Shown: in pieces, positions 3,687 to 11,693 of the stretch
Position numbering within the stretch: position 1 is the stretch's first letter
How the letters are laid out: every line of letters starts with the position of its first letter
IMG/VR virus record: IMGVR_UViG_3300027667_000001
Span: 1-39,123 of that record
Reading direction: 5' to 3' (one strand)
Length of the DNA: 39,123 nucleotides
From: a virus
Program-made: the position numbers and the translations under genes
The notes under the pieces: model-generated
The model's database searches: none
Seen by the model: only the letters and a program-made list of their open reading frames with translations
What the model was told of the DNA's origin: nothing

Positions 3687-4658
3687 ATGTCCACCAAAGA
3701 AAACAACAGAACTAATAAAATCCCAGCAAAAACACATAACCCAAAAGCTCATGCCCCAGCCGTTTATATTCCCTGCTGGTTAATTCAAATCCCCTCATCT
3801 CAATTATCCCATCAAGCCAAGCTTTTATATGGCCGATTGGCACAATGGAGCAGCGCAAAGGGAACGGTTCATAGGTCAACCAATCAGCTATCACAAGAAC
3901 TTGGGATGCAACAACGGGTTATTGAAAGAGGGCTAAAGGAATTACGGGAGGTTAAATTAATTGAGACGTATCAAACAGAATGTGGGGGAATTAACCATTA
4001 TAGATTTTTAGAACATGACTGGATGAATGAGCCTATTAATAAAAATTTGGAATATAACTCACCCCACTACCCCCCCGACAAAAATGTCGGTACCCCCCCG
4101 ACAAATGTGTCGGTACCCACCGACAAAAATGTCGGAGCTAAAATAAAAGAAATAAAAAGAAATAAAAAAACTACTACTACTCTCGCGAGAGAGACCACAA
4201 AGAAAAGTAGTAGTAATTTTGTGATTTCTAAAGAAATAGACGGTTTATTATTAACGTTACGAGCACACTATATCCCTAAAGACACAAGGAGTGACCATGA
4301 ATTTTTAAGACAATGTAGCCATCATTTAGATAACGGAAACAAAGAGAAATATAACCTTACAAGACGCATAAAGGGATTAGAAGCCATAATTAAAGCAGGA
4401 TTTTTTGAAAAACCAGCCGGATATAGTGAAAAGAAAGTCGTTAAATCTCAATATTCACCAGAGGATTCCGCTTTAATTCATAAATACCAGCATGCTTTAC
4501 GCATGGTAAGCCATGGAGCTAAACTTGAAGATTACATAGCAGACCAAAAAGAAGTTAAAAAGGCCATACAGTTAATGAAAAAAGCACAAAGCAACAAGCT
4601 ACCTTTGGATAAAAGATTTGGCTTAATGGGATTTAATCAAATTATAGACGCCATTTAA
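3687..4658 (+). CDS. Replication initiator / replisome organiser (lambda O-like, N-terminal winged HTH)
   Basis: SQLSHQAKLLYGRLAQW...STNQLSQELGMQQRVIERGLKELREVKLIE is a winged-HTH motif. Three iterons plus an A/T-rich tract lie in the central linker-coding part, as in lambda O/ori. Confidence 0.65.
   Translation: MSTKENNRTNKIPAKTHNPKAHAPAVYIPCWLIQIPSSQLSHQAKLLYGRLAQWSSAKGTVHRSTNQLSQELGMQQRVIERGLKELREVKLIETYQTECGGINHYRFLEHDWMNEPINKNLEYNSPHYPPDKNVGTPPTNVSVPTDKNVGAKIKEIKRNKKTTTTLARETTKKSSSNFVISKEIDGLLLTLRAHYIPKDTRSDHEFLRQCSHHLDNGNKEKYNLTRRIKGLEAIIKAGFFEKPAGYSEKKVVKSQYSPEDSALIHKYQHALRMVSHGAKLEDYIADQKEVKKAIQLMKKAQSNKLPLDKRFGLMGFNQIIDAI
4075..4135. repeat. Three dyad-symmetric iterons CCGACAAAAATGTCGG (4075-4090, 4098-4113 variant, 4120-4135); putative ori
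   Basis: Read directly. The spacing is 23 and 22 bp. They are followed by the A/T-rich tract 4136-4175 and the palindrome TCTCGCGAGA. Confidence 0.65.
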
Positions 4659-4935: not shown

Positions 4936-5121
4936 TTACGACTTTTTATTTTTACCTTCTTTATTTTTTATTTTTTCGTATATTTCCTGACGATGTATAA
5001 TAACCCCCTCTGGTGCCTCGAATCCTAAACGTATTTGACTGCCGTTTACTCCTAAGACTGATACTACGATATCGTTACCTATCATGACTTTTTCACCTGA
5101 TCGCCTACCTAAAATTAACAT
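4936..5121 (-). CDS. csrA: CsrA/RsmA-family RNA-binding translational regulator
   Basis: MLILGRRSGEKVMIGNDIVVSVLGVNGSQIRLGFEAPEGVIIHRQEIYEKIK aligns along its length with canonical CsrA (MLILTRRVGE..IG....V.VLGV.G.QVR.G..AP....VHREEIY). The start was moved to the second ATG, which has GGAG 8-9 nt upstream. Confidence 0.9.
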   Translation of the reverse strand: MLILGRRSGEKVMIGNDIVVSVLGVNGSQIRLGFEAPEGVIIHRQEIYEKIKNKEGKNKKS

Positions 5122-5183
5122 AGTCCATATCTCCATTGTTGTTGAAAAAACCGTCTAATATAATCTAAATGAGCTAAATAGCA

Positions 5184-5966: not shown

Positions 5967-6021
5967 CGTATTTTATCCTGTCATAGTTACTTAAAAATGT
6001 TCATAATTACTTAAAGAATTT

Positions 6022-6050
6022 ATAATAGTATAGTTTTGAATACGTGTCAA
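6022..6050 (-). promoter_or_regulatory. Candidate sigma70 promoter of the csrA operon (TTGACA-17-TATTAT on the minus strand)
   Basis: The -35 is the reverse complement of 6045-6050 and the -10 is the reverse complement of 6022-6027, with a 17-nt spacer. The match to consensus is near perfect. It shares a 22-bp box with 2016-2037. Confidence 0.6.
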
Positions 6051-6090
6051 CAAAATATTTGAATTAATTTTATAAATGGAGCTTTTAAGT

Positions 6091-6348
6091 ATGAAAGGAG
6101 CAATGATTAGGTGCGTGAGATGTAAAGGACGTAAAAAACTTTTTAAATTTAATGGCATTTATAATTATACAAATACAGGCGGCGTTGAAATACAATGCCC
6201 TATGTGTCTTGGCGCGGGCGTCACGAAATCATTTGAAGAAGCACTTGAGGAAATAAAGAAAGAAAACAACAAGCACAAATACGATAAAATAAAGGAAAAG
6301 GATTTTAATAATGGCAGGGAATCAAGGGAATTTGCCGAGCAAACCTAA
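6091..6348 (+). CDS. DnaJ-type zinc-finger protein (CxxCxGxG-like, twice)
   Basis: CVRCKGRKK and CPMCLGAG motifs. The ATG at 6091 has GGAG about 10 nt upstream; the ORF track starts at 6076. Confidence 0.5.
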   Translation: MKGAMIRCVRCKGRKKLFKFNGIYNYTNTGGVEIQCPMCLGAGVTKSFEEALEEIKKENNKHKYDKIKEKDFNNGRESREFAEQT

Positions 6349-6778
6349 GCATGCAGGTGGTAGACCATCCGATTATACAAAGGAAAAGGGCGATCTAATC
6401 TGCGAAAGAATATCAACGCATGATGTTGGGTTACCTAGGCTTTGTAAAATGTATTCTGATATGCCAGATGAGAAAACGGTACAACGTTGGCGGTATCAAT
6501 TTGAGGAGTTTCGCCTGAAATACGCGCAAGCTAAGATGATTCAGGCAGATTTATTGGCAGAGCAATGCCTTGAAATTTCAGATAGTTGTATACCCGAAGA
6601 GGTAGGCGTTGATAGATTGCGCGTTGATACCAGAAAATGGCTAGCATCAAAGCTATTGCCTAAGCAATACGGTGATAAACTCTTGCTCGAACAAAAGACC
6701 GAAGAAAATGAGCAGCTAAAAGAGGAGCTTAGAGCATTGAGGGCTAGACTGGATGAAGCGAACAAGAGAGAGTTTTAA
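6311..6778 (+). CDS. HTH protein of the type commonly annotated as terminase small subunit
   Basis: GGRPSDYT.E....ICE.I......L..C......P...TV.RW......F...YA.AK..QAD.L.E....I.D and the C-terminal RVDTRKWLASKLLPKQYGDK match my memory of this family. It is not adjacent to terL. Confidence 0.45.
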   Translation: MAGNQGNLPSKPKHAGGRPSDYTKEKGDLICERISTHDVGLPRLCKMYSDMPDEKTVQRWRYQFEEFRLKYAQAKMIQADLLAEQCLEISDSCIPEEVGVDRLRVDTRKWLASKLLPKQYGDKLLLEQKTEENEQLKEELRALRARLDEANKREF

Positions 6779-6960
6779 TGAAAAAAGATAAAGATAAACA
6801 AGAAACAATAGGAATTAAATTATTTAACTCTATGGCTTCCCGTTCAGGAATAGATTTAGAAAAGCTTAATAGTCAAGATTGGCCGTGTTTTACAAGCCAA
6901 TTTAATGAAGACCCGAAGCCTAGACCTGTAGATAAAAAAGAGAGTTTTAATGAAAGATGA
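6778..6960 (+). CDS. Hypothetical protein (60 aa)
   Basis: ORF track. Its TAATG start overlaps the upstream stop. Confidence 0.45.
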   Translation: MKKDKDKQETIGIKLFNSMASRSGIDLEKLNSQDWPCFTSQFNEDPKPRPVDKKESFNER

Positions 6961-7126
6961 ATTTGACGATAAGATTGAAGACCTTGAGCGTAGATTAGCT
7001 AATGCTTATTTGAAACAATTTGAAAAACCGATGTCACTAGAAGAAAGGGAAAAATTAAGTTCTTTCTCTTATGTACGCGATTGTTTACATAATCCTGTCA
7101 TTATTAAGAAGATTGAGCCAAAATAA
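6950..7126 (+). CDS. Hypothetical protein (58 aa), not in the ORF track
   Basis: Read by hand: ATG at 6950 within the GAGAGTTTTAATGAAA junction motif, open to the TAA at 7124-7126. Confidence 0.4.
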   Translation: MKDEFDDKIEDLERRLANAYLKQFEKPMSLEEREKLSSFSYVRDCLHNPVIIKKIEPK

Positions 7127-7138
7127 AAGGGAGTTTTA

Positions 7139-7366
7139 ATGAAAAATAAAATGAAAAAACCCCTATCTCAAGATGAAATTGGCACAAAAAACGAAATACA
7201 GTTTTTGAAAGAAAAATGCCAAATGCTAGAAAGCCAAATATCCCTCCTCGATAAAGATTGGTATGCAAAATTTGATTCACAACAAAGAAAGCTCGAAAAA
7301 TCTAACTTTCTGAAAAATTTATACAAAAAATTTATTGAGCAAATTCTTACTTATGAGGAATCTTAA
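7139..7366 (+). CDS. Hypothetical coiled-coil protein (75 aa)
   Basis: ORF track, with the GGGAGTTTTAATGAAA junction motif. Confidence 0.5.
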   Translation: MKNKMKKPLSQDEIGTKNEIQFLKEKCQMLESQISLLDKDWYAKFDSQQRKLEKSNFLKNLYKKFIEQILTYEES

Positions 7367-7584
7367 TGAAAAATAGGCCAGAATTTACGCGCGAACAAGA
7401 AGACTGGATTTGCTACCAAATCGGCGAGTGGTATTTGGATTGGAAAGATAAAATCATACTAAATAGCTTTAGTACAGATGAAAAAATTGTATTTGATCCT
7501 GCAAAAGCTTTTACGCATGAATTGGGAATTGCAAAAGAGCACTTAAAAGAGATTTTATGCCACAAGAAGGAAAAAGACTTTTAA
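7366..7584 (+). CDS. Hypothetical protein (72 aa); its last 16 codons include inverted repeat IR-L
   Basis: ORF track. Bases 7534-7566 are exactly 11 in-frame codons (KEHLKEILCHK). Confidence 0.5.
   Translation: MKNRPEFTREQEDWICYQIGEWYLDWKDKIILNSFSTDEKIVFDPAKAFTHELGIAKEHLKEILCHKKEKDF
7534..7566. repeat. IR-L: left copy of a 33-bp perfect inverted repeat (candidate recombinase crossover site)
   Basis: aaagagcacttaaaagagattttatgccacaag is the exact reverse complement of 8165-8197, checked base by base. Confidence 0.9.
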
Positions 7585-7943
7585 CCCTTTTCAGTTTGAG
7601 CCACATACCGATTAATATACTCATCGTATTCAATAAGGCTGCCTTCTGGGTCAAAAAGCATTATATATTTTAAATAGTCCTTTTCTTTAGTCGATGGGTA
7701 ATACTTTTTCATCAGTTTTGTACATTCTTCTTTAAATTCATCACTTAAAACATAAGCATTATATTCTTGCAATGGATTGGATGGCGTTGATATACATTCA
7801 ACCTTTTCACCATCTGTTATAAAAACTGCTGCTTCATTGTTTTTGTCTTTTGCTAGGAATACAACTTGAGACTCTGGCTGCACTTTCTTTTTCTTCTTTT
7901 TCCTTTCTTCCCTTCTTCGGAAAATTTCTAGGTCATTGTCCAT
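7581..7943 (-). CDS. Hypothetical protein (120 aa, K/R-rich N-terminus), inside the IR-bounded cassette
   Basis: ORF track. It begins MDNDLE, sharing a 17-bp stretch with the start of the upstream cassette gene. Confidence 0.55.
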   Translation of the reverse strand: MDNDLEIFRRREERKKKKKKVQPESQVVFLAKDKNNEAAVFITDGEKVECISTPSNPLQEYNAYVLSDEFKEECTKLMKKYYPSTKEKDYLKYIMLFDPEGSLIEYDEYINRYVAQTEKG

Positions 7944-8163
7944 TGTCTACATTTTCTCCAAGAGAATTTAGCGTATCCTTTGCGCACTTAAAAAGCATAA
8001 AATTAAACCAGTTATCATATAGTTTTCCTGCTTCATAAATTAAATTTTCTTTGGCTTTATCGTCGTAAGTTCCATAGAAAAAACCTTGTAAATAGTGATA
8101 AATTTTCTGAAAATCTTTAAACAATTGATTAAAGGGGTCTAGGTCATTGTACATTATTTTCAT
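7933..8163 (-). CDS. Hypothetical protein (76 aa, or 73 aa from the ATG at 8154), inside the IR-bounded cassette
   Basis: ORF track. The first ATG lies 1 nt from the end of IR-R. Confidence 0.5.
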   Translation of the reverse strand: MKIMYNDLDPFNQLFKDFQKIYHYLQGFFYGTYDDKAKENLIYEAGKLYDNWFNFMLFKCAKDTLNSLGENVDNGQ

Positions 8164-8164
8164 C

Positions 8165-8197
8165 CTTGTGGCATAAAATCTCTTTTAAGTGCTCTTT
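8165..8197. repeat. IR-R: right copy of the 33-bp perfect inverted repeat
   Basis: cttgtggcataaaatctcttttaagtgctcttt is the reverse complement of 7534-7566. Confidence 0.9.
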
Positions 8198-8244
8198 GTT
8201 CATATAGTATTTTTACAAGATTGCCGTTTATGTCTATGCCGATT

Positions 8245-8430
8245 TCACCTATTCTTTTCATTATCCAATTTTCCACGAAGAATAGACCTTGATATTTCTA
8301 TGACTTCCAAAGAGTCTTTTATAGAATATTCTCCATAAGTTTTTACTATGGTTTTAATTTGACGTTCTAAATCATAAAGGATTTTTTCGGCTTGAAAGTT
8401 AAATACATTATTATTTTTTTTATCATCCAC
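8245..8430 (-). CDS. Hypothetical protein (61 aa, GTG start)
   Basis: ORF track. Confidence 0.4.
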   Translation of the reverse strand: MDDKKNNNVFNFQAEKILYDLERQIKTIVKTYGEYSIKDSLEVIEISRSILRGKLDNEKNR

Positions 8431-8436
8431 AGTTCA

Positions 8437-8610
8437 CTACCTTTTAGCTTCATGAAAAACCCTTTTGGCTGTTAAAAATTTTTCTAATACATCTAAAGTT
8501 GTGTTTTTTACTTTTTTTGACCTAGTCTTATATGAAGTTTGGATTAGTTCATCAATATAATAATTTAAAACTTTTTCAGTATTTGAATTAATAAAACATT
8601 CTTTATCCAC
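8437..8610 (-). CDS. Hypothetical protein (57 aa, GTG start), not in the ORF track
   Basis: Read by hand: AGAGGTG then a GTG at 8610, open to the TAG at 8437-8439. It fills the gap downstream of the recombinase. Confidence 0.3.
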   Translation of the reverse strand: MDKECFINSNTEKVLNYYIDELIQTSYKTRSKKVKNTTLDVLEKFLTAKRVFHEAKR

Positions 8611-8640
8611 TAGACACCTCTTTTTATAAACATAATATTA

Positions 8641-9246
8641 TTATCCTGTTATCACCTTTTTAATGGGAGACGAGCCAATCTCGACGCCTCGATGTCTTAG
8701 ATAACGATAGAAGGTTGATAATCCAATACCTAATTGCGAGCAAATAATACGAATAGAAAGGCTCTTGTCGCGGTATAAGCTTTCGGCTATCTGTGCTTTT
8801 TCAATAGCCTTTCCTGAAAGGCCTTTGGGTCTTCCGCCTAATTTCCCGCGGGCTCTCGCGGACTTTAAACCTGCATTAACTCTTTCAACTATCATCCCTC
8901 TTTCAAATTCTGCAATCATGCCAAAGAAATTAAAGAAGAGCATGCCTTGAGCGGTCGTTGTGTTTATCTCTTCGCTTAGACTAATAAAGGTAACTTCTCT
9001 ATTTTTCAATTCCTCAACCGTTTGCCGAAGATGGACTAAGTTTCGTCCTAGCCTGTCGAGCTTCCATATAATCAGCGTATCACCGGCTCTAAGATTCCTC
9101 ATTAAGTCATCTAAGACAAGGCGAGCGGTCTTAGCTCCGCTGGCGACCTCTTGATAGATTTTCTCGCAGCCTGCGGCCTTTAGAGCATCGACTTGTAATT
9201 CGAGTGACTGATCTCGGGTTGATATTCGAGCGTAGCCTATTTTCAT
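8641..9246 (-). CDS. Small serine recombinase (resolvase/invertase family; Hin/Gin/Cin-like)
   Basis: MKIGYARISTRDQSLELQ (catalytic Ser), DRLGRN, G..FF......AEFER..I.ER...G, then the GGRPK linker and a C-terminal HTH. At 201 aa it is not a large serine integrase. Confidence 0.9.
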   Translation of the reverse strand: MKIGYARISTRDQSLELQVDALKAAGCEKIYQEVASGAKTARLVLDDLMRNLRAGDTLIIWKLDRLGRNLVHLRQTVEELKNREVTFISLSEEINTTTAQGMLFFNFFGMIAEFERGMIVERVNAGLKSARARGKLGGRPKGLSGKAIEKAQIAESLYRDKSLSIRIICSQLGIGLSTFYRYLRHRGVEIGSSPIKKVITG

Positions 9247-9248
9247 GC

Positions 9249-9485
9249 TTAATGAATCCCTCTTAATAAATTATAAAGAATAGAGACAGATGCAGCGAGC
9301 ATCCCTCCCACACTAAGTATAATTTTATAAGCCCATTCTCTCAGATCGCTTTTAGTGGCTATTTGATTATCAATAATTTTAGCTAATTCTGCTGCCTGTC
9401 CTTCGGCTTGCTGATCAGTAAATCCTAATTCCTTCATTTTCTTGGCATAGGCCAGTGTATCGAATGCTATCGCGGACATTTTCAC
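9249..9485 (-). CDS. DUF1640-like coiled-coil protein with a C-terminal TM helix
   Basis: AFDTLAYAKKMKELGFTDQQAEGQAAELAKIID..IATKSDL... followed by a hydrophobic tail. It ends 2 bp upstream of the recombinase, so they are probably co-transcribed. Confidence 0.6.
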   Translation of the reverse strand: MKMSAIAFDTLAYAKKMKELGFTDQQAEGQAAELAKIIDNQIATKSDLREWAYKIILSVGGMLAASVSILYNLLRGIH

Positions 9486-9629
9486 CTCTTTATGTTTTCG
9501 TTTATTGACATAATATGTTTGTTGATAATTTGATTTGTGGTTTGACTTAACGATAACACAATAAAATTTTATAGCAAGAAAATTACAAATTTTCTTTTAT
9601 TCTTCCAAAGAGGTGTTTAATGATAACGC

Positions 9630-9668
9630 GCACAGCGTAGCCTATGCTAAGCATAGGCTACGCTGTGC
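9630..9668. repeat. 39-bp perfect palindrome (18-bp arms, 3-nt centre)
   Basis: gcacagcgtagcctatgc-taa-gcataggctacgctgtgc, read directly. There is no flanking T-tract. Confidence 0.9.
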
Positions 9669-9886
9669 TAAGCATCGAACTGATAAAAATCAATTACTTA
9701 TGAATGTTTTATTACAGTGGCGCAGAACGTTCTACGTGCGCCCTAGAATATTCTGCGACAATTGCGACACAACTTGCGTCGTAATTGTGGAACATTATCA
9801 TGGAACATTTTAGCCGGATGTTAGTAAATATGTGGTATAATAAAGAAAGGAAATTTCAGATAAGGGATTTAAACAAATAATCTTTA

Positions 9887-10192
9887 ATGAGATTAAATAT
9901 GAGCTTACTTTCTTTTGATCCTTTCCAATATGCAGAACGTTTAACAAAAACAGGTCTTGATTCTGAAACAGCAAAGGAAATTGCCAGTGCGCAAATGGAA
10001 GTAATACGTCAATTAATGGAAGAAAAGCTTGCCACCAAAGATGATTTGCGCGAGCTTAAATCAGAATTAAAGCAAGATTTATTGATGCTTAAAGTAGAAT
10101 TATTGGAAAAGTGCGCGACTAAATCAGAGATGAGATGGCTATTTGGAATAGCAACTACTATTTTAGTTCTTGCCATAAAATTCTTGCATTAA
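9887..10192 (+). CDS. DUF1640-like coiled-coil protein with a C-terminal TM helix (paralogue of 9249..9485; may start at the ATG at 9899)
   Basis: SFDPFQYAERLTKTGLDSETAKEIA.....I.....LATKDDLRELK... followed by a hydrophobic tail. Confidence 0.6.
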   Translation: MRLNMSLLSFDPFQYAERLTKTGLDSETAKEIASAQMEVIRQLMEEKLATKDDLRELKSELKQDLLMLKVELLEKCATKSEMRWLFGIATTILVLAIKFLH

Positions 10193-10196
10193 GAAT

Positions 10197-10343
10197 ATGA
10201 ATAGCGATTTAGCCTTTTATATAATAATGTCCACCCTGTGCGGGATTAGTGTTGCGTTAATTATTGCAATGCTCATAATACCAAGTCCAAATTATCATTC
10301 TCGATTCGAGTGCGTGACAATATGTCATACTCTTACTAATTAA
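10197..10343 (+). CDS. Possible small membrane protein (48 aa)
   Basis: Read by hand. It has a hydrophobic core (MSTLCGISVALIIAMLII) but no clear SD. Confidence 0.25.
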   Translation: MNSDLAFYIIMSTLCGISVALIIAMLIIPSPNYHSRFECVTICHTLTN

Positions 10344-10376
10344 GTTTAATTCCACCGATAAGGATTTATTAACAGT

Positions 10377-10781
10377 TCAAAATGCTGGGTTCCATTCTTC
10401 CCAATCACCAAAACAATAGCCTTGTATAGTTTTAATCGTCTCATCAATCGAATAGCAAACCTTCGTAAAATAACATTGTCTTGACATGTCTTCTAAAAAC
10501 TCTTTTTGAGCTTTACTTAAAATACCGCCTTTGCTTTTTAGCTCTATCCATCCGCCGCCGTAGCCATGGCGTGGCATCGCAATAAATAAGTCTGCGACTC
10601 CTGCTCGCATTCCCATATACTTAAGGGATTTTCCATAGTGGCTAGTACGTTTACCCTCATTTGGGATATGAATTACAAAGGTTTTTAAGACAGGATGAAG
10701 CCTCACCCATTCGATGACAGCTTTTTGTATGGAGTTTTCAGAAATCGTGCCAGATTTAAGATATTTGGTTTTTGTCATCAT
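10377..10781 (-). CDS. VRR-NUC domain nuclease
   Basis: ..IQKAVIEW........IHIPNEG.R.......L..MG...GVADLFI......GGGWIELKSKGGILSKAQKEFL matches the VRR-NUC D...E.K pattern. Confidence 0.7.
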   Translation of the reverse strand: MMTKTKYLKSGTISENSIQKAVIEWVRLHPVLKTFVIHIPNEGKRTSHYGKSLKYMGMRAGVADLFIAMPRHGYGGGWIELKSKGGILSKAQKEFLEDMSRQCYFTKVCYSIDETIKTIQGYCFGDWEEWNPAF

Positions 10782-10856: not shown

Positions 10857-11693
10857 TTATGAATAGTATTTTACATCTAAATATGCACCATTGAAACTAG
10901 AATCACTTGCACTATTAATCATTGAAGCATCTATGACGTTAAAATGATTGCTCGTTTGATAACCAATTTCAAAGACAAGGGCAGATTTATTGCAGAAAGC
11001 ACCGGTGTAGTCAAAACCCAGTTTTCCTTCGACTGCTGGAACTATTCTATTAGTATCAGAATTAATAATAGTATTATCTTTTCCTTCATACTTACTATTT
11101 ATTTTTCCAACCAGTAATGCGGTATTAAGGTGAGCATCTAACCCAAAACCACAACCTAAATTATAACGGGCATCTGTACCAAATCTTGGACCAACACCCA
11201 CAAACTTAGTATTAAAGGCTTGCACGTCACTATTATCATTAAGATTATCAGTAGAATTACTAATTAATCCCAATCCATGAGTCATACGAATATAACGTAC
11301 ACCTGCAAATAATCTCATATCAAGCGAACTGGCACAAAAACGCTGCCCACCTTCTAAATCGACCATATCTAAATCAGAAACTTGTTTGCCTGTGATAAAT
11401 AAGCCTTTTGCATTATCTATTAATAAATCACTGTCATTTTTAGATATCGTATTATAGTGAACGGTTAAATCATTTCCGGTATTAGCAAATAAGTATCCAA
11501 GCTGAATATCATTTCCAAAATCATAATTATTATCAACTATCTTATTAATTGAATTTTCACGAAGATATAAGGTATCAACGCTTACTTTAAAGCCGCTATG
11601 TTGAGATGGTACAAAAATCGACTCATTAGCGAAAGCAGGCGCACTTAAACCTACTGCAATGAGTGCTACTGATAAACGTTTCATATATCGCAT
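10857..11693 (-). CDS. Outer-membrane porin of the Legionella major outer membrane protein (MOMP/OmpS) family, with a signal peptide
   Basis: Signal peptide MKRLSVALIAVGLSAPAFA. Blocks TLYLRE, NTGNDLTVHY, MRLFAGVRYIRM, FNTKFVGVGPRFG, ALLVG, IVPAVEGKLGFDYTG and YLDVKYY parallel those of Legionella OmpS as I remember it. Confidence 0.8.
   Translation of the reverse strand: MRYMKRLSVALIAVGLSAPAFANESIFVPSQHSGFKVSVDTLYLRENSINKIVDNNYDFGNDIQLGYLFANTGNDLTVHYNTISKNDSDLLIDNAKGLFITGKQVSDLDMVDLEGGQRFCASSLDMRLFAGVRYIRMTHGLGLISNSTDNLNDNSDVQAFNTKFVGVGPRFGTDARYNLGCGFGLDAHLNTALLVGKINSKYEGKDNTIINSDTNRIVPAVEGKLGFDYTGAFCNKSALVFEIGYQTSNHFNVIDASMINSASDSSFNGAYLDVKYYS

Follow-up and report, generated by a model that had tools for sequence, protein, structure and literature searches.

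A perfect inverted repeat beside a Gin-like recombinase gene in a 39-kb phage genome: probable scar of a past inversion rather than an invertase switch

Introduction

Does a long perfect inverted repeat that lies near a gene for a DNA invertase necessarily bound a segment that is inverted by that enzyme, or can such a repeat arise as the by-product of an unrelated event? The question is raised by a phage genome of 39,123 nucleotides (IMG/VR virus record IMGVR_UViG_3300027667_000001, positions 1 to 39,123; hereafter 'the window', meaning that whole stretch), in which two facing copies of a 33-bp sequence enclose a cassette of two small genes at the meeting point of two convergent operons, and in which a Gin-like small serine recombinase is encoded nearby. 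An initial annotation, made from the sequence alone, took the repeats to be the crossover sites of that recombinase, and the cassette to be a module that is reversibly reassigned from one operon to the other. The analysis described here points to a different origin: the repeat pair is best read as the scar of a single past, lineage-specific inversion in which the end of a small gene was copied, and not as an invertase switch. We assign this reading a probability of about 0.72.

Results

The repeat pair and the genes that it joins

Exact sequence comparison confirmed that the left repeat (IR-L, 7534-7566, AAAGAGCACTTAAAAGAGATTTTATGCCACAAG) is the precise reverse complement of the right repeat (IR-R, 8165-8197), with no mismatch across 33 bp. 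When up to three mismatches were allowed, the repeat matched the window at these two places only, and none of 100 dinucleotide-preserving shuffles of the window produced a match at that threshold, which bears out the initial view that the pair is far beyond chance in 39 kb. The arms extend imperfectly to 41 nt (7534-7574 against 8157-8197, 95% complementary), and the 598 bp between the perfect repeats (7567-8164) hold, as first described, two minus-strand open reading frames (ORFs) of 76 and 120 amino acids (aa). No further copy was found in the window, among viral contigs (33-mer search) or among metagenome contigs (28-mer core search), the latter two collections apparently lacking the window genome itself. 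Folded as single-stranded DNA, the repeat is unremarkable (-3 kcal/mol, z = -1.9).

The features at the centre of the argument are as follows.

7139-7366, plus strand: 75-aa gene of the rightward operon, directly upstream of the 72-aa gene, with a 75 > 72 junction that is common to relative L064
7366-7584, plus strand: 72-aa gene ('U'), from a small phage protein family; a two-helix hairpin is predicted
7534-7566, plus strand: IR-L, 11 full codons (KEHLKEILCHK) of the 72-aa gene, five codons short of its end; the copy apparently kept in its native place
7567-7574, plus strand: imperfect repeat extension, AAGGAAAA, matching GATGAAAA at 8157-8164 in 6 of 8 positions
7581-7943, minus strand: 120-aa gene (MDNDLEIFRRREERKKKKKK...), which forms the tail of the rightward operon in relatives
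7933-8163, minus strand: 76-aa gene (73 aa, starting at 8154, according to public gene callers)
8144-8203, minus strand: mini-ORF, MNKEHLKEILCHKDENNVQ followed by a stop, which reads IR-R in the same frame as IR-L and overlaps the start of the 76-aa gene
8165-8197, minus strand: IR-R, apparently the 3' terminus of the 72-aa gene in a displaced copy, attached to the start of the 76-aa gene; right end of the inverted block

The two copies of the repeat are thus embedded in coding sequence in a manner that the initial annotation had described correctly: IR-L consists of 11 in-frame codons at the 3' end of the 72-aa gene, and the mini-ORF running from 8203 down to 8144 reads the second copy in the same frame. 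The mini-ORF is a remnant of the native ending of the 72-aa gene (..CHKDENNVQ, then stop); it may also act as a translational coupling element, and the likely ribosome-binding site of the 76-aa gene (AAGGA) spans the edge of IR-R. The current C-terminus of the 72-aa protein (KEKDF, then stop) is the antisense of sequence lying downstream of the 120-aa gene. Flipping the cassette in silico reproduced the predicted change of ending from ..CHKKEKDF to ..CHKDENNVQ. The alternative C-termini differ in only 5-6 residues, and both orientations leave the 76-aa and 120-aa genes intact and the 72/73-aa gene complete.

The sequence of the repeat is constrained at the level of protein. The motif LGIAKEHLKxxLC, which the repeat encodes, is kept across homologs of the 72-aa family (P0006-P0016), and in an AlphaFold model of the 72-aa protein (helices at residues 9-30 and 45-69; mean predicted local distance difference test score, pLDDT, 75) the peptide falls within the predicted second helix. 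Searches of Pfam and PHROG with this protein returned no match. Because the repeat-encoded peptide is conserved in a protein family, the conservation of IR-L needs no recombination site to explain it.

Gene order in related phages

About a dozen related phage contigs (given L numbers below) were found using the 120-aa, 72-aa and recombinase proteins as queries, and the genes of the window were mapped on them by tblastn and blastn. The initial annotation had proposed comparing orientation among such relatives; the comparison found the inverted block in the window alone. In ten independent relatives (L001/L063, L002, L005, L008, L025/L026, L064, L065, L066, L067/L068 and L071) the 120-like gene lies on the strand of the rightward operon and is convergent with the recombinase; only in the window is it co-directional with the recombinase. 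The 120-aa gene is therefore no orphan, as the description of both cassette genes as novel would have had it, but has homologs in about ten related phages. For the 76-aa protein, a homolog search returned a single near-identical match, namely itself (P0004), and weakly similar proteins (29-41% identity) are encoded between the 72-like and 120-like genes of L064, L067 and L071.

The most informative relatives retain the whole series of genes. In L064 the order is 75-like > 72-like > 76-like > 120N > 120C, followed by convergent genes for a 'YPV' protein and the recombinase; the C-terminus of the 75-aa protein is matched there at 85% identity by tblastn and is followed directly by the 72-like ORF. 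In L067/L068 the order is TerS > alphaCTD-like > 72-like > 76-like > 120N, followed by the convergent recombinase. By blastn and tblastn, the block containing the 120-aa gene is inverted in the window, with both flanks collinear, relative to L001, L002, L005, L025, L064, L067 and L071. Flipping the cassette of the window in silico yields the order 75 > 72-like > 76-like > 120-like with a convergent recombinase, which is that of L064, L067/L068 and L001/L063. The orientation of the window thus appears to be derived, and the 'flipped' orientation ancestral, since it is the latter that the relatives carry. Because the flipped arrangement is native in relatives, an inversion with end-points at the repeats did occur in the lineage of the window. 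The initial proposal that the rightward operon would end in the cassette after a flip is consequently upheld to the extent that relatives possess that order; its further proposal, of a reversible switch driven by the invertase, is unsupported.

Break-points, and the origin of each repeat copy

L064 and L067 preserve a native junction at which the 72-like gene ends and the 76-like gene begins; the minus strand of the window, read through IR-R and on into the 76-aa gene, aligns with it collinearly, a correspondence that points to IR-R as the original end of the 72-aa gene, still joined to its original downstream neighbour. IR-L, for its part, finds its homologs where the 72-like genes of L001, L024, L025, L064 and L067 end. 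Two relatives locate the break-points: (i) identity with L071 is unbroken for 54 nt, which take in the 3' end of the 120-aa gene, its stop codon and 14 nt beyond, and breaks off exactly at 7567; and (ii) identity with L024, which amounts to 92.8% outside IR-R, breaks off exactly at 8198. These two limits define the inverted block, with 33 bp duplicated at one break-point.

7567-8197, minus strand: inverted block of 631 bp, comprising 14 nt downstream of the 120-aa gene, the 120-aa gene, the 76-aa gene and IR-R

In relatives the repeated sequence is single-copy and lies at the end of the 72-like gene (a scan with a 26-nt core found one homologous gene end each in L001, L024 and L025), while L002 has none; and no comparable inverted repeat was found in relatives whose recombinases are 55-92% identical to that of the window.

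Other candidate explanations of the structure were tried and set aside. Inversion of a three-gene block from a '120 > < 72' ancestor, suggested by the arrangements in L005 and L025, does not fit the native, co-oriented junction of IR-R with the 76-aa gene or the 75 > 72 junction common to L064. Two 17-nt inverted matches in L067, between the 3' end of its 72-like gene and the region upstream of its recombinase, are not collinear and are attributed to chance. An element resembling a miniature inverted-repeat transposable element or an insertion sequence was rejected, as IR-L belongs natively to the coding part of a conserved gene; the arms have no flanking direct repeats, and no transposase match was found among the cassette genes in Pfam or PHROG.

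The sequence to the right of the block includes a segment that we term the 'A-end'.

8198-8276, minus strand: A-end, which comprises a conserved spacer and a short ORF (MKRIGEIGIDINGNLVKILY..), downstream of the 61-aa gene
8245-8430, minus strand: 61-aa gene, between the recombinase gene and IR-R, with a homolog in L024
8437-8610, minus strand: 57-aa gene, between the recombinase gene and IR-R

The A-end matches positions 5844-6064 of L024, the incomplete contig k141_114665 of ERZ27241343, at ~93% identity, and L071 has it too. Its ORF passes out of frame into IR-R in the window and stops at 8160. All four substitutions that separate it from the L024 copy (window 8199-8276, minus strand; L024 6001-6075; the L071 counterpart lies at 5004-4930) are synonymous, and the short ORF MKRIGEIGIDINGNLVKILY.. 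is for that reason probably translated. Its C-terminal partner varies: it is joined to the 72-like protein in L024 and to an unrelated 99-aa part in L071, and is truncated by IR-R in the window. The slot beside the A-end, occupied by a 72-like gene in one relative (L024) and by an unrelated gene of 99 aa in another (L071), begins within about 10 nt of the right break-point of the window.

The 72-like gene itself is found in the recombinase operon of L024 (6001-6282), L025/L026 (L025 6001-6198) and L005 (647-982), and in the rightward operon of the window (7366-7584), L001 (5092-5340), L064 and L067; one family member, P0016, is a fusion of a 72-like protein and a 'YPV' protein. The region in which the operons meet has been rearranged repeatedly.

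A reconstruction of the inversion

The events that are proposed to have produced the scar would be few. The ancestor would have carried a rightward operon ending in the order ..75 > 72-aa gene > 76 > 120, head-on with the leftward recombinase operon. One event would then have inverted a block of 631 bp, reaching from the final 33 bp of the 72-aa gene through the 76-aa and 120-aa genes to a point 14 nt downstream, and leaving a second copy of the 33 bp at the 72-aa gene and so creating a perfect inverted duplication around the inverted segment. Duplication at one break-point may have resulted from strand or template switching during replication, or from staggered breaks with fill-in. The phage encodes recombination proteins of its own (a YqaJ exonuclease, RecT and SSB), and its YqaJ/RecT system is a plausible helper in the inversion. 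The likeness of AAGGAAAA and GATGAAAA indicates similar ends of the inverted block, and possibly a microhomology that was used when the junction formed. The 33-bp duplicate may have been kept because, at one end, it saves the conserved second helix of the 72-aa protein and, at the other, the context in which translation of the 76-aa gene is initiated. As an outcome, the module of two genes would have left the rightward operon and become the tail of the recombinase operon, and the neighbouring Gin-like recombinase would be unnecessary for any of these steps.

Several observations weigh against this reconstruction. The data on orientation consist of assemblies and not of reads, and a minority population in the flipped orientation may exist. 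The mechanism of duplication is one that we infer, and microhomology at the junctions amounts to only 0-2 nt, in addition to the 6/8 match of AAGGAAAA to GATGAAAA. The proposed ancestor requires that the 'slot' gene found beside the A-end in L071 and L024 was lost earlier, and leaves the short MKRIG.. ORF out of frame. The 72-aa gene of the window is most similar (84% at the amino acid level) to the copy in L024, which lies in the opposite operon; more than one rearrangement has therefore affected the region. Finally, a Gin-like invertase with no visible target sits 443 bp away.

The recombinase, and tests of an invertase switch

8641-9246, minus strand: small serine recombinase of 201 aa, with a catalytic domain nearest to that of Gin

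The protein combines a Resolvase domain (PF00239, 2e-42) with an HTH_7 domain (PF02796, 2.8e-5), matches phrog_125 'DNA invertase' at 1.4e-66, and among solved structures is closer to Gin (4m6f, 3.6e-41) than to gamma-delta resolvase (5e-24). Its C-terminal DNA-binding domain gave no detectable match to Hin or Gin. The gene ends 443 bp from IR-R (a distance first reported as 444 bp) and starts ~1,050 bp from it, at the 5' part in which Din-family invertase genes usually have a Fis-dependent recombinational enhancer, with the cassette on the same strand; and, in agreement with the initial annotation, no second recombinase was recognised among the ORFs scanned.

Relatives with the same recombinase proved to lack the repeats, an outcome that the initial annotation had itself named as one that would refute a switch. 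Orthologs in L002 (92% identity) and L001 (86%) have helix-turn-helix motifs nearly the same as that of the window enzyme, and L002 lacks the 72-like gene altogether. Nor does the repeat resemble a crossover site. Scored against a profile built from 13 published Din-family sites (PMC3241671, Table 3), its best register reached -10.2 bits, against 11.0-31.2 bits for the known sites, a comparison to be read with the divergence of the DNA-binding domain from those of Hin and Gin in mind; that score ranks 1114th among 39,098 positions of the window. The highest score anywhere in the window (9.3 bits) was below the mean of the maxima from shuffled sequence (10.9 bits). The repeats do not fit the 26-bp crossover consensus TTCnnnnAAACC-NN-GGTTTnnnnGAA, lacking its AAACC-NN-GGTTT core, and AAACCNNGGTTT, allowing one mismatch, occurs twice in the window (1.85 expected), in neither case near a repeat. 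The internal dyad TTAAAA-GAGA-TTTTAT, initially thought reminiscent of hix and gix sites, thus shows no such resemblance once it is scored. A half-site (GGMATAAAAT) shared with dyad sites upstream of the L002 recombinase was also considered, and was discarded as a chance likeness (18 matches, 17 expected).

The junctions that distinguish the two orientations (rc, reverse complement) are the following.

Sequenced orientation: GGGAATTGCA-(33 bp)-AAGGAAAAAGACTTTTAA and CATTATTTTCATC-(33 bp rc)-GTTCATATAG
Flipped orientation: GGGAATTGCA-(33 bp)-GATGAAAATAATGTACAATG and AAAGGGTTAAAAGTCTTTTTCCTT-(33 bp rc)-GTTCATATAG

All six public contigs of the window genome, which are assemblies and not reads, have the sequenced orientation and encode its junction protein (P0003); four of them, each of ~39 kb and assembled with k-mers longer than the repeat, run straight through the locus. 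Proteins that only the flipped orientation would encode (a 73-aa protein ending in ..CHKDENNVQ, and a 67/72-aa fusion ORF) are absent from ~15 billion proteins. Of the characteristics of a Din-family system, the window displays an invertase-subgroup small serine recombinase with a catalytic domain and a C-terminal helix-turn-helix; paired crossover sites, coexisting orientations, and conservation of sites and segment together with the recombinase were looked for and not found.

Discussion

Weighing the explanations

The initial model, in which the repeats are crossover sites of the adjacent Gin-like invertase and the cassette passes reversibly between the convergent operons, is very unlikely on this evidence, although it draws on real features: a catalytic domain nearest to Gin, the match to a family annotated as DNA invertase, the proximity of the gene to IR-R with the cassette on the same strand, a repeat about as long as the 34-bp repeats of the Mu G segment, an inversion that did take place with precisely these end-points, and a DNA-binding domain too far from those of Hin and Gin for its sites to be predicted. 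Set against these are orthologous recombinases in phages that have no repeat pair, the failure of the repeat on the Din-site profile, and the single orientation of six assemblies. Recombinases of the serine type exchange strands at an overlap of 2 bp, which leaves them no way to create a duplication of 33 bp, so that the second copy of the repeat must have come from an unrelated event and could function as a site only by coincidence. A related proposal holds that the locus is a newly born invertible element, in which a perfect pair arose by duplicating inversion close to a Gin-like invertase and the cassette now toggles by means of that invertase or of RecT; we consider this improbable, if slightly less so than the initial model. 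Were it true, the two-gene module would be re-timed between the tail of the packaging-side operon and that of the recombinase operon, and the window would offer a snapshot of the origin of a phage inversion switch.

Rare flip-flopping driven by homology, in which the 33-bp (41-bp imperfect) repeat would let the 598-bp cassette invert through host RecA or the phage RecT/YqaJ proteins, with an ancestral-like minority, is an unlikely reading to which somewhat more weight may be given than to either of these. It is in keeping with the perfection of the repeat across 33 bp, with the presence of phage genes for YqaJ, RecT and SSB, with genes of 76, 120 and 72/73 aa that are intact either way, and with a flipped state that is a viable arrangement in relatives. 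Against it stand the absence of flipped contigs (0/6) and of flipped-junction proteins, and the four ~39-kb contigs assembled across the region, which argue against a balanced mixture; moreover, 33 bp is near the lower length limit for efficient homologous recombination. Such flipping would in any case be a by-product, or at most a young switch since put to use, and would involve no dedicated site-specific system. The suggestion that the structure is an artefact of assembly or amplification, a chimeric inverted join with a short overlap that is not in the real phage, is the least credible of all: every sequence used is a metagenome assembly, and amplified metagenomic DNA can contain inverted chimeras with short overlaps, but the same structure recurs at 100% identity in at least four separate assemblies, k-mers that exceed the repeat mean that reads must span it, and every ORF across the junctions is intact. 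A history in which two full inverted copies of the 72-aa gene existed and one was later deleted needs more steps than the single inversion with a copied gene end that we favour.

The evidence therefore favours an ordinary, though unusually clean, structural rearrangement. A switch, if it existed, would be unusual in moving genes between operons instead of swapping fibre tips. The case cautions that a long perfect inverted repeat beside an invertase gene is insufficient grounds for calling an invertible element, and it illustrates that comparison with relatives can settle such a question without reads. It also leaves a group of ~39-kb phages that keep a Gin-like recombinase with no visible target.

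Neighbouring features and genome context

Around the meeting point, the 72-aa and 120-aa genes converge so closely that they share 4 bp at their stops (TTAA, 7581-7584). No terminator-like structure was seen between the two operons, so that transcription from the two sides would collide. A scan for promoters and terminators gave counts at the level of shuffled sequence and is hence uninformative on operon structure; a flip would move the cassette to the other operon. In the rightward operon, the motif RGAGTTTTAATGAAA, which combines a ribosome-binding site, a stop and a start, occurs at three successive gene junctions (6769-6783, 6941-6955 and 7130-7144; 3 matches against 0.5 expected), and might mark boundaries at which modules are shuffled.

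The recombinase module is mosaic among relatives: the TerS, zinc-finger and VRR-NUC proteins of L071 are 93-98% identical to those of the window while its recombinase is only 65% identical, and L002 has a more distant backbone, yet a recombinase that is 92% identical. Directly upstream of the intact recombinase, L024 (4463-4765) and L001 (6844-7167) carry a degenerate, truncated recombinase-like ORF (MKIGYARVSTRED.. or MKIGYIYLYGEE..). Upstream of the recombinase operon, relatives have operator-like palindromes (GGTGACAATTTGTCACC) or repeats spaced by 20 bp (TTCACCAATATGG, three copies), located at L001 7561-8167, L024 3852-4232, L071 6684-6728 and L002 11292-11344; these vary from phage to phage, as the operators of immunity regions do. 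In the window, the divergent intergenic region upstream of the DUF1640-recombinase operon contains a perfect palindrome of 39 bp (9630-9668, GCACAGCGTAGCCTATGCT-A-AGCATAGGCTACGCTGTGC) that includes ATAGGCTACGCT, a sequence identical to codons 3-6 of the recombinase gene (9229-9240). It could be a second inverted duplication of a gene end, an operator or an antisense element; an Rfam scan of 6000-10500 gave sub-threshold matches only, at this palindrome.

The window is a complete phage genome of ~39 kb, encoding a portal protein, a large terminase, a major head protein, an Sf6-type small-terminase-like protein and a replication initiator in addition to YqaJ, RecT and SSB. At least four assemblies contain this genome at 100% identity: the window, JGI 3300001145, ENA ERZ27314077 (k141) and ENA ERZ923189 (k127). 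A blastn search of 6000-10000 gave no match to deposited phages and, among plasmids, matched only the recombinase (67-69%), with no close relative. Three tandem units of 23 bp (TACCCCCCCGACAAAAATGTCGG) at 4068-4135, inside the replication-initiator gene (3687-4658), look like the iterons of a replication origin. Genes of a host-like character are also present.

33116-33904: ankyrin-repeat protein
35724-37340: hybrid histidine kinase/response regulator, with PAS, HisKA, HATPase and receiver domains
4936-5136: CsrA
10857-11693: Legionella-type major outer-membrane protein

Together, these four gene products suggest that the host belongs to the Legionellales or is a similar intracellular bacterium. 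The description of Legionella phage LME-1 (PMC12407071) mentions no recombinase or invertase, and was not used further.

Comparison with known systems

The locus may be set beside three kinds of known system. The first comprises the Din-family invertible segments: the G segment of Mu (Gin/gix), the C segment of P1 (Cin/cix), and those of Salmonella (Hin/hix), e14 (Pin/pix) and p15B (Min/mix). As in these, a Gin-like small serine recombinase is encoded near a segment bounded by inverted repeats, and there are two further likenesses to Mu: the window's IR-L is read in frame as the 3'-terminal part of a gene that is itself outside the segment, like gixL in gene S, and its repeats are similar in length (33 bp against 34 bp). 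The differences are more numerous. The repeat scores -10 bits where published sites score 11-31 bits, no sizeable alternative C-terminal segments are swapped (only 5-6 residues change), neither site has the invertase gene next to it, the repeat pair is missing from relatives with an orthologous recombinase, and a single orientation is observed.

The second is the mosaic exchange of modules, at gene boundaries, among temperate phages, which the region resembles in that different genes occupy one slot by the A-end (in L024 and L071), the 72-like gene is found in either operon among relatives, and the boundary motif is repeated at three junctions. Exchange alone, however, gives no inverted duplication, and the window displays an in-place inversion of resident genes with no replacement.

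The third consists of inversions accompanied by inverted duplication at a break-point, for which the models are staggered breaks and a switch of strand or template at replication forks. The window differs from typical examples in its minimal microhomology, in a mechanism that we infer, and in its setting in a small phage genome. It agrees with them in that a segment is inverted relative to relatives while its flanks are collinear, that a sequence single-copy in those relatives forms a short perfect inverted duplication, that one copy appears native and the other to have moved with the block, and that homology to relatives ends at the edges of the duplication. To these features the window adds one of its own, namely a duplicate that is in-frame coding sequence and keeps both of the adjoining genes functional.

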